Assembly (NCBI GenBank): GCA_018897155.1
Contig: JAHILE010000048.1
Location: 1,385-65,384 of the forward strand
Reading direction: 5' to 3'
Length of the DNA stretch: 64,000 nucleotides
Source of the DNA: Nanobdellota archaeon
GTDB taxonomy: Archaea > EX4484-52 > LFW-46
Shown: in pieces, positions 57,484 to 57,973 of the stretch
How the letters are laid out: every line of letters starts with the position of its first letter
Numbering within the stretch: position 1 is the first letter of the stretch
Notes under the pieces: model-generated
What the model was told of the DNA's origin: nothing
What the model saw: only the letters and a program-made list of their open reading frames with translations
The model's database searches: none
Made by a program: the position numbers and the translations under genes

Positions 57484-57973
57484 ATGGATGGCGATAAATT
57501 GAACATAACCTGGTCAGACTTTGAAAAAGTCGAGCTGCGCGCCGGCACAATCATAAAGGCAGAAGATTTTCCTGAAGCCAAAATCCTTTCGCAAGCTTCT
57601 CTTGCTCTAGGCTTTTCAAGCTTCGCTTGAAAAAGCCGGCATATAAGCTTCTGATTGACTTCGGCGAATTCGGGATAAAAAAATCAAGTCATGAAAATCT
57701 TCATGCATAATGTTCAGATTTTCAAGCCTTTGAAAGTTTCGCTCCGCAGTATTAATTAGCGGGGCTTCAACTATTCAAAACGCGCAAATCACAAAGCACT
57801 ACAAGAAAGATGAACTGGTCGGAAAGCAGGTAATCTGCGTGGTAAATTTCGCGCCGAAGCAAATCGGAAATTTCATATCCGAAGTTCTTACAACAGGATT
57901 TCCGGACGAGCGCGGCGATATAGTGCTGGCAGAGACTGAAAGAAAAGTACAGAACGGCGCGAAACTTATGTGA
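57484..57973 (+). pseudogene. csaA: CsaA/Trbp111-like tRNA-binding (EMAP/OB-fold) protein gene interrupted by two short insertions (50 nt and 92 nt); either a pseudogene or an unconventionally processed gene
   Basis: Three in-frame segments. Segment 1 is 57484-57582 (MDGDKLNITWSDFEKVELRAGTIIKAEDFPEAK). Segment 2 is 57633-57689 ([19 protein letters not shown]). Segment 3 is 57782-57973 ([63 protein letters not shown]). Joined, they give a 115-aa protein. By eye it is colinear with the B. subtilis CsaA pattern as I recall it (FPEAR.PA.KL.IDFG...GIK.SSAQIT..Y). Confidence 0.7.

Follow-up and report, generated by a model that had tools for sequence, protein, structure and literature searches.

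The PATEs of Haloquadratum walsbyi are transposase-free derivatives of IS200/IS605 elements and include 52-bp forms that consist of the termini only and have apparently been mobilised (PMC3119063). Their definition combines the lack of inverted terminal repeats and of target duplication with mutually similar near-terminal palindromes, a non-coding size and a conserved terminal oligonucleotide (PMC3119063). IS200/IS605 transposition itself proceeds through single-stranded DNA, is coupled to the lagging strand and excises the element precisely (PMC5027513). Here we analyse a 64,000-nucleotide stretch from a Nanobdellota archaeon (contig JAHILE010000048.1 of assembly GCA_018897155.1; hereafter the window), in which csaA, the gene for a tRNA-binding protein of the CsaA/Trbp111 type, is split by two inserts of 50 and 92 nt. 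Both inserts are members of a dispersed and polymorphic repeat family, which from its sequence features appears to be a new family of PATE- or REP-like hairpin repeats in a genus of DPANN archaea.

REPs carry a conserved GTAG-type 5′ tetranucleotide, form inverted doublets (REPINs) and are essentially extragenic. Rickettsia palindromic elements (RPEs), reportedly described by Ogata and colleagues in 2000 as selfish palindromic repeats lying in-frame in protein-coding genes, are bacterial and 100–150 bp long. The REP/REPIN systems go with RAYT/TnpA-REP proteins of the HUH superfamily (PMC6006769). Archaeal protein-coding genes can also carry introns that have the motif bulge–helix–bulge (BHB), as does cbf5 of Crenarchaeota (PMC2738675), and the coding gap of phage T4 gene 60 and the mitochondrial ‘byp’ elements are skipped by translational bypassing (10.1101/2022.08.31.505936). 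No description of the family reported here was found in the literature on DPANN mRNA introns and DPANN miniature inverted-repeat transposable elements.

A preliminary description of the window, made by reading the sequence alone, had placed three coding segments in three different frames (57484–57582, 57633–57689 and 57782–57973) and proposed that deletion of 57583–57632 and 57690–57781 would join them into one open reading frame (ORF) of 115 residues, colinear with CsaA/Trbp111 proteins. All of this was confirmed. After deletion of 50 and 92 nt the joined ORF is 348 nt long and encodes 115 residues. Its product scores 168.7 bits against NCBIfam NF007495 (cut-off 117) and 161 bits against TIGR02222 (cut-off 119.65), covers positions 1–96 of the 96 in the Pfam tRNA_bind profile (PF01588), and aligns with Agrobacterium tumefaciens CsaA (PDB 2q2i) with an E value of 2.8e-39 and no gap over either junction. 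The joined gene thus encodes a full-length CsaA/Trbp111-type tRNA-binding protein. Stop codons follow soon after entry into the two inserts, after 15 and 6 sense codons, respectively, as had been noticed. Owing to the A run at the site, the insert-1 junction can be placed anywhere from −3 to +1 nt; ends consistent with the rest of the family place the inserts at 57584–57633 and 57689–57780, and the latter placement yields the Ser codon AGC found in the related loci L001–L003.

A protein search recovered uninterrupted CsaA orthologues of 92%, 90% and 86% amino acid identity on contigs that are syntenic with the window (endA, dcd, DUF1512, csaA, HAD, AXE1 and POR). In DNA alignments, four uninterrupted orthologues (L001–L004) show clean gaps precisely at both inserts, so the split is more than a chance arrangement of frames. 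Along a syntenic stretch of about 12 kb no gene other than csaA falls into several tblastn pieces, and the window is otherwise densely coding. About 100 kb of additional DNA was fetched from six lineages of the genus, whose GatD proteins are 82–100% identical, and in an all-against-all tblastn comparison of ∼190 kb from the six lineages csaA was again the only gene split by 25–260 extra bases; this comparison sees only genes with an orthologue in another fetched locus and thus missed an insert in the DUF5661 gene of L002 (see below). The 80 best loci from a scan of GTDB genomes with the spliced protein are all uninterrupted, in a ranking where interrupted genes fall too low. A metagenome scan with the exon-3 peptide, in a collection that lacks the window population, recovered the interrupted csaA of locus L153, which is the one further insert-interrupted gene among 167 csaA loci (L001–L167). 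In another metagenome contig (L134:1020–1050) a duplicated GGTATAAAGGTATAAAAAAA marks a simple frameshift in csaA, which probably reflects either an error of sequencing or assembly or ordinary pseudogene formation.

The coding segments carry no other damage, in agreement with the first inspection: dN/dS of the exons is 0.038 against L001, the closest relative, at a dS of ∼0.9. Lineage-specific exon changes amount to 10 synonymous and 5 non-synonymous bases, the latter in three codons, and the amino acids that they create all occur in other CsaAs. The three changes (T73V, A81G and V84I) are clustered in residues 73–84; two of them require two base changes each, and they make a 16-residue stretch identical to distant CsaAs such as that of L153. 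This segment may be a small gene-conversion or recombination tract.

The window's upstream 181-residue protein and a truncated 48-residue csaA fragment are also present on a Logan contig of SRR11548473 and on contig JAHIOE010000019.1 of GCA_018895095.1, an NCBI metagenome-assembled genome in which csaA was not called. Over 3.9 and 6.5 kb these contigs match the window at 100% identity, although the assemblies may share reads, and all three retrieved contigs of the population (the window, L168/L170 and L169) carry both inserts at 100% identity. An assembly or consensus artefact, which had been among the explanations offered at first and which could account for inserts that are hairpin-rich and unique to this population, is hardly credible: the sequence is the same in the window, in the metagenome-assembled genome and in the Logan contig from a different assembly (with the reads possibly shared), and for both inserts there are family members with conserved ends in other genomes.

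Insert 1 reads TCCTTTC-(GCAAG CTTCT CTTGC)-TCTAGGC-(TTTTCAAGC TTC GCTTGAAAA), with the palindromes CAAGCTTCTCTTG and CAAGCTTCGCTTG, and insert 2 reads TCATGAAAAT..AGATTTTCAAGCCTTTGAA..(GCTCCGC..GCGGGGC)..TTCAAAA, with the palindromes TGAAAATCT/AGATTTTCA and TTTGAAAGTT/AACTATTCAAA. All stems named in the preliminary description are present, the GCTCCGC/GCGGGGC stem of insert 2 including one G–T pair. The wording ‘hairpin-rich’ is true by inspection and is not statistically striking alone: the folding energies of the inserts with their flanks lie mildly below those of shuffled sequences (z of −1.6 and −1.7), and 14 and 11 of 200 shuffles fold as well. Rfam searches at permissive thresholds, covering the csaA surroundings, the 40.4–41.05 kb region, L002 and L004, gave no ribozyme or known RNA family matching the inserts. 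An origin of the inserts as inverted local sequence through template switching was rejected; only a short likeness to exon 1 (GATTTTC..AAGCC) is seen, and such likenesses are better explained by the TTTTCA/TGAAAA arms of the family.

A search of the window for further insert copies with blastn-short returned chance 11–13-mers only, and the family was recognised later through the relatives, where two subtypes could be defined. The S-type consensus, read after normalising the element boundaries, is TC(C/G)NTTC(G/A)C, palindrome 1, TCT(C/A)GGC and palindrome 2 (TTTTCA…TGAAAA), with the conserved 3′ end T(G/C)AAAA. The L-type consensus is TCATGAAAAT…ATTTTCAAGC(C/T)TTTGAA…TTCAAAA. Insert 1 is a compact complete S-type unit. 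Insert 2 fits the L-type together with L002:10685–10746 and L171:8436–8497, to which it is homologous (blastn E of 1.6e-4); it was the top nhmmer match in the window (E of 0.028), and the two relatives' copies, which come from the same genome, are 89% identical to each other. A hidden Markov model (HMM) of the S-type, built solely from copies in the relatives, was run against the 64-kb window and produced three matches, all on the plus strand: insert 1 and two intergenic copies (Table 1). The copy at 52584 gave the best match, reads TCCGTTCACAGCGTTCTCGGC-TTTTCAAATTTTCCGAATTTGAAAA-TCC and has an orthologous copy at L002:744.

The family is found in the window genome and in five sister lineages. 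Its elements measure 46–130 nt, at least 17 copies occur in the ∼190 kb from six lineages, and at least six presence/absence polymorphisms were counted among the lineages. Most copies are intergenic and lie on both strands relative to the neighbouring genes, and genic copies are scarce despite a coding density of ∼90%. Copies adjoin tRNA genes at window positions 52288 and 52584 and at L002 positions 520, 744, 5201 and 9378. Of the explanations offered in the preliminary description, very recent insertion of small palindromic mobile elements is thus the supported one, with dispersed, polymorphic copies both elsewhere in the window and in the fetched relatives. Around the same tRNA genes, the gap between tRNA-Asn and tRNA-Phe is 2 nt in the window (52441–52444) as against a spacer of 226 nt in L002 (377–604) and of 183 nt in L004; the L002 spacer holds L-like and S-like units, and both tRNAs of L004 bear introns.

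Four comparisons of filled and empty sites were available (inserts 1 and 2 against L001–L004, the L004 tRNA copy against L002 and the window, and the L171 L-type copy against the window and L173), and in all four the filled site is longer than the empty one by just the length of the element, with no target duplication. At the insert-1 junction the AAAA belongs to the element, as its conserved ..GAAAA end, and meets the A5 run of the gene. Terminal inverted repeats are absent; one end is TCCNTTCRC or TCATG and the other T(G/C)AAAA, an asymmetric pair. The two palindromes within one element resemble each other, and palindrome 1 varies with its pairing kept (GCAAG/CTTGC, GCTTCGC/GCGAAGC, GCAACGC/GCGTTGC and GCGATGC/GCATCGC). 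The elements show a pronounced strand bias, lying on the plus strand in 4/4 cases in the window and on one strand in 8/10 on contig Ga0172369_10000530, 3/3 in the L004 contig and 2/3 in L177. By hand count ∼17/20 copies are on one strand overall, a number in which some copies are orthologous and the events are not all independent.

In these respects the family resembles the PATEs: it has no terminal inverted repeats, makes no target duplication, ends in a short conserved oligonucleotide, and consists of heterogeneous non-coding elements of ∼50 nt with two near-terminal, mutually similar palindromes. Its insertions are likewise strain- or species-specific, can be associated head-to-tail with other elements, and sit in an archaeal host. 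Unlike in PATEs, the hairpin at the right end extends to the final base instead of lying subterminally, and the host genome is the tiny, compact one of a DPANN archaeon, with copies in a tRNA D-loop and in coding genes. The family is also like REP/REPIN sequences in being short, palindromic, mostly intergenic and often located at gene ends, with a strand or orientation bias and a structure kept through compensatory changes. Helitron and IS91 elements have a 5′ TC, a 3′ hairpin and a CAAG target. A Helitron/IS91-like assignment was rejected: CTRR is lacking at the 3′ end, and the target agrees in only one case out of six.

Besides the two in csaA, genic copies were found in a tRNA, in the DUF5661 gene and in kae1/tsaD (Table 1). 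The S-like element in the D-loop of the L004 tRNA-Gly(CCC) is lacking in the window and L002. The composite insert in the DUF5661 gene of L002 is a head-to-tail pair of a 72-nt unit like insert 2 and a 55-nt unit like insert 1, and removing its 127 nt restores positions 1–65 of the 65 in the DUF5661 Pfam profile across the junction. The kae1 copy of L171 adds 18 residues (PVASQSSLSALQHSVVKG) in a loop, relative to Pyrococcus abyssi Kae1 (PDB 2ivn). Selfish palindromic repeats within ORFs are what RPEs represent, and the in-frame, stop-free kae1 copy recalls the way in which these are tolerated; unlike RPEs, the csaA copies of 50 and 92 nt are not multiples of three, introduce stops and would be intolerable for translation.

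In two relatives an S-type unit also stands immediately upstream of the EF-2 gene, and an in-frame ATG ahead of the conserved EF-2 start is overlapped by the 3′ arm of the unit's hairpin 2. This hairpin covaries between species (TTTTCAGCC/GGCTGAAAA versus TTTTTAGTC/GACTAAAAA); the unit may have been co-opted as a translational control hairpin. The L-type copy of L171 lies inside a conserved non-coding region, with empty sites in the window (reverse strand, 40846–40852) and in L173. The corresponding region of the window (40546–40913, minus strand, between gatD and EF-2) is 83–91% identical to relatives, has no Rfam match, and the homologous L171 region shows no convincing ORF in six-frame translation. 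The stretch is a candidate for an unannotated structured RNA gene, and the 86-residue ORF at 40441–40701 is probably spurious.

Table 1. Positions of the csaA segments, the repeat copies and the intron-related genes. Positions without a locus prefix refer to the window; L numbers denote loci in other contigs.
Feature	Position	Strand	Basis and remarks
csaA coding segment 1	57484..57583	+	Met1 to first base of Lys34; translation, alignment with orthologues and PDB 2q2i
Insert 1, S-type hairpin element, 50 nt	57584..57633	+	Absent in L001–L004; match to relatives-only HMM; 57583–57632 in the preliminary description
Insert 1 as HMM match	57584–57635	+	E 9.6e-4; model position 1 falls exactly on junction 57584
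csaA coding segment 2	57634..57688	+	Ends with first two bases of Ser codon; orthologue alignment
Insert 2, L-type hairpin element, 92 nt	57689..57780	+	Absent in orthologues; homologous copies in relatives; 57690–57781 in the preliminary description
csaA coding segment 3	57781..57973	+	Last base of Ser codon, AQITKHY.. to stop; alignment with orthologues and PDB 2q2i
Intergenic S-type copy, dcd stop codon / tRNA-Asn promoter	52584..52632	+	Best HMM match (52584–52630), E 2.7e-4
Intergenic S-type copy, endA start / tRNA-Phe 3′ end	52288..52365	+	HMM match 52288–52350, E 0.037
S-like element, 46 nt, tRNA-Gly(CCC) D-loop	L004:5895–5940 (also L005–L007)		Sequence TCATGCGATGCGATCGCAAGCTTTTCACGCGCTTCGCATGTGAAAA; no BHB
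Composite insert, 127 nt, DUF5661 gene after ..ITTGK	L002:10675–10801		Junctions flanked by repeat AAAATC
S-type copy in kae1/tsaD (15675–16697)	L171:16577–16630	−	In-frame, stop-free
S-type unit immediately upstream of EF-2	L171:7754–7849; L175 ~5020–5100	−	Absent in window (compare 41440–41530)
tRNA-Gly(CCC)	56683..56884	+	One 131-nt intron (56719–56849) at position 37/38; BHB positive control
endA, single-unit (alpha-type) tRNA splicing endonuclease	51535..52227	−	tblastn with relative's endonuclease; PF02778 and PF01974
Insert in csaA after ..KKSSAQI, 91 nt	L153:2413–2503		AT-rich metagenome contig, distant genome

The reading that we favour, with a probability of roughly 65%, is that csaA has been freshly interrupted by small hairpin mobile elements and that the disruption is very recent, because the exons are clean. 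Transposase-free, hairpin-ended repeats of 46–130 nt in the two subtypes S and L would populate the DPANN genus and would insert, almost always on one DNA strand, without terminal inverted repeats or target duplication. One S copy would have landed within the A5 run of csaA codons 33–34, and one L copy after AAATCAAG in codon 53. Either insert alters the frame and introduces a stop, so that the interrupted gene as it is could not make CsaA and would at present be non-functional. The mechanism may be single-strand (HUH-type) transposition, and precise excision could revert csaA to an intact gene because elements of such a kind excise precisely. The strand bias would be as expected for single-strand transposition coupled to the lagging strand. 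Since the bias exists, the sense orientation of all genic copies is explained without RNA processing. The frame-breaking copies lie in genes that are plausibly dispensable, namely csaA, DUF5661 and a redundant tRNA-Gly(CCC), and the kae1 copy is in-frame and stop-free; for these reasons the elements are probably not spliced.

Several observations weigh against this interpretation. Two independent frame-breaking inserts only 55 nt apart in a 348-nt gene with perfect exons are an unlikely coincidence, and in a dead gene the coincidence would call for near-simultaneous, local or very recent insertion. The insertions may both be very recent, perhaps the product of one episode or of local hopping within DNA that was already dead; otherwise csaA would still be expressed, by removal of the inserts from RNA or by their precise excision from DNA. 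All genic copies are sense-oriented, which an RNA-level role would explain too; an insert of 46 nt in a tRNA D-loop would ordinarily be taken for an intron; and an unrelated double-palindrome insert lies 9 nt away in the csaA of the distant L153. The 5′ flanks compared (CCAAAA, GGAAAAA, TTCAAAA, which is another element's end, TCAAG, TCTAG and GCTTT) are A/G-rich and share no fixed target tetranucleotide, and no fixed target tetra- or pentanucleotide of the PATE kind is evident. No tnpA, tnpB or RAYT gene was found among the scanned window ORFs, a subset of all ORFs, and the gene tables for L002, L004 and L171–L177 (∼125 kb of relatives) show none either. The family thus differs from the REP/REPIN systems with their RAYT gene and from the PATEs with their IS605-type transposon, and its derivation from the ends of such a transposon can only be supposed.

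If precise excision took place at appreciable frequency, csaA could also be a reversible DNA switch, with mixed alleles in the population and selection acting on the subpopulation that has an intact gene. Precise excision is intrinsic to peel-and-paste transposition (PMC5027513), the exons are undamaged, and in the absence of target duplications the loss of both elements would restore the ORF exactly. Both inserts would, however, have to be lost from one and the same chromosome. Each of the three contigs retrieved for the population carries both of them at 100% identity, no transposase was found, and the protein collection holds no uninterrupted allele with 100% identical exons. We regard a DNA switch as decidedly improbable.

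The preliminary description had further suggested that the inserts might be unconventional intervening sequences removed from the mRNA. This was examined with a strict BHB test, which asks for a 4-bp helix between exon bases −5 to −2 of the 5′ site and intron bases −5 to −2 of the 3′ site and for two flanking 3-nt bulges on opposite strands, each cut after the second base, at positions that restore the product. All three control introns passed (the window tRNA-Gly and the tRNA-Phe and tRNA-Asn of L004). In the window tRNA-Gly(CCC) the motif has UUCC/GGAA as its central helix, CA|C and AU|A as its bulges and, as outer helix, the anticodon stem of 6 bp. None of the five elements passed, namely inserts 1 and 2, L002:10675–10801, L004:5895–5940 and L153:2413–2503, and the intron proposal is not supported. 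Insert 1 offers at p57580/q57630 a perfect AAGC/GCUU helix with 3-nt bulges and without flanking helices, which was found by hand after the scan had filtered it out; a weaker alternative at p57577/q57627 would turn a conserved Ala into Val.

Relaxed motifs can be cleaved by some EndAs (PMC5829648, PMC12397907), and the BHB search was extended to the forms HBh′, hBH and BHL, with one proper bulge, the central helix and one flanking helix. With helix length and bulge sizes relaxed, insert 2 and the L004 element still gave no motif at all; insert 1 and the L002 insert reached a score of 5, which does not exceed the median for 1500 random positions, and the control introns were not separated from random positions either. 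The relaxed search is too permissive to discriminate, and only the strict test is informative.

We consider it unlikely that the inserts are removed from RNA by EndA, acting on a strongly relaxed motif or by a BHB-independent activity that would recognise the conserved ends (5′ UC.. and 3′ ..GAAAA at the foot of a U4:A4-based hairpin), and that the exons are then ligated by RtcB. Such removal would keep csaA, DUF5661 and tRNA-Gly(CCC) functional, and several observations speak for it. Exact excision restores all three; the csaA exons are intact and under strong constraint; one gene holds two inserts; and among the genic copies 5/5 are in sense orientation and 5/5 have their 3′ boundary at the base of the terminal hairpin. 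The genome encodes EndA and has tRNA introns, tRNA introns of the clade have evidently moved between tRNA genes, as the likeness of the window Gly intron to the L004 Asn intron indicates, and DPANN alpha4 EndAs with an L3 loop are associated with more tRNA gene disruption (PMC5829648). To this can be added the AAGC/GCUU helix of insert 1 with its bulges. Yet that helix lacks both flanking helices, the canonical motif is found in 0/5 elements as against 3/3 control introns, and the relaxed rules give insert 2 and the L004 element nothing and leave the others within the random range. The family copies are mostly intergenic and on either strand relative to their neighbours, few are genic at ∼90% coding density, the kae1 copy is in-frame and stop-free as if translated, and the spliced CsaA product has no identical protein in a collection of 5.8 billion proteins, where the best match is 92%. 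The csaA inserts are like the cbf5 introns in being short, in restoring the ORF when removed exactly, in the presence of EndA in the genome and in their presence or absence among relatives. They differ from them in having no BHB or convincing relaxed motif and in belonging to a mainly intergenic family, with conserved sequence ends in place of a conserved junction structure.

A wider form of the same idea is that the S and L elements are a new class of archaeal intervening sequence, which spreads as DNA and is removed from RNA without a BHB, through its conserved ends and RtcB ligation. It would make the copies in csaA, DUF5661 and the tRNA-Gly D-loop harmless, and it would explain the two inserts between conserved exons, the sense-only genic copies and the nearby insert of L153. 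We hold this to be quite unlikely.

The preliminary description was correct that csaA lies near an intron-bearing tRNA and endA, and this proximity has no bearing on the inserts. The window tRNA-Gly(CCC) with its intron was missed by ARAGORN and by the Rfam gathering threshold, and an intron-less orthologue is found at L002:5051–5121. The core of the window intron (CGCATAATCGG..CTTAGGGCGACCGC..GGTCACCTG) is homologous to the tRNA-Asn intron of L004, which suggests that tRNA introns have been transferred between different tRNA genes in the clade. An extra hairpin module, AAGCTTGGCACGTTAGTGCCATGA (∼56764–56787), is present in the window intron; in L002 it is found again, with compensatory changes, downstream of the tRNA-Gly that has no intron.

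Two perfect palindromes whose arms are alike, TAGTAACTGTGAA and ATAGCAAATGTG, make up the 91-nt insert of L153; the palindromes TAGTAACTGTG and TAGCAAATGTG resemble each other. It begins with TAG TAA, is flanked by ATA..ATA, and a 13-bp hairpin follows. Its site is 9 nt downstream of the window insert-2 site, a coincidence with a chance of roughly 5%. It has no sequence in common with the window family and no BHB, and in its palindromes it shares what by sequence is a PATE-like architecture.

Documented translational bypasses span at most ∼55 nt. A bypass of the gene-60 kind, in which the ribosome takes off at the codon before an insert and lands on a matching codon at the insert end, is suggested by insert 1, which like gene 60 and the byp elements is a mobile hairpin insert of 50 nt in a coding region with identical codons for take-off and landing, AAA being both the codon ahead of it and its final codon. 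It is also suggested by the L002 insert with AAAATC at both junctions, and by the L153 insert, which has ATA/ATA and whose take-off codon is directly followed by UAG UAA and a strong hairpin. In insert 2, however, the codons do not match (AGU versus AAC) and the length is 92 nt; the codon after the insert-1 take-off is AUC and not a stop; the matching A-runs are explained by the ..GAAAA end of the element and A-rich target sites; and the family also occurs in tRNA and other RNA genes and in intergenic non-coding DNA, where bypassing is irrelevant. Bypassing is consequently highly improbable. Rescue of csaA by read-through or frameshifting was rejected, as insert 2 has stops in the exon-2 and exon-3 frames and no frame is open across it; the exon-2 frame is open from 57576, and a −1 shift could bridge insert 1 with ∼17 extra residues.

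Elsewhere in the window, three consecutive giant ORFs on the plus strand (161–11467, 11568–14150 and 14168–20122) encode 3768, 860 and 1984 residues. Such consecutive giant ORFs we take to be typical of DPANN surface or adhesion proteins; the 860-residue product has no Pfam match. A defence-island-like cluster at 34353–39089 (plus strand) encodes an Eco57I/MmeI-type fused restriction–modification enzyme of 986 residues, a TIR-domain protein of 234 residues and a nucleotidyltransferase followed by a small ORF that overlaps it by 35 nt at its start. The latter pair may be an MNT/HEPN-like toxin–antitoxin system.

Removal of the inserts at the RNA level, if true, would mean a new splicing route in archaea. 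If, as we favour, csaA has recently been interrupted by mobile elements, a compact DPANN genome would harbour hairpin repeats of ∼50–90 nt that are still moving and knock out dispensable genes. Such repeats would also be able to be absorbed in-frame by the conserved and normally indispensable kae1, and to occupy a tRNA D-loop and the region upstream of EF-2. Inserts of this kind make gene callers split or drop genes and make tRNA finders miss them, and in surveys of DPANN genomes the outcome can be mistaken for gene loss or for ‘non-canonical introns’. With its naturally filled and empty sites, the family lends itself to the study of transposase-free mobile repeats in DPANN archaea.

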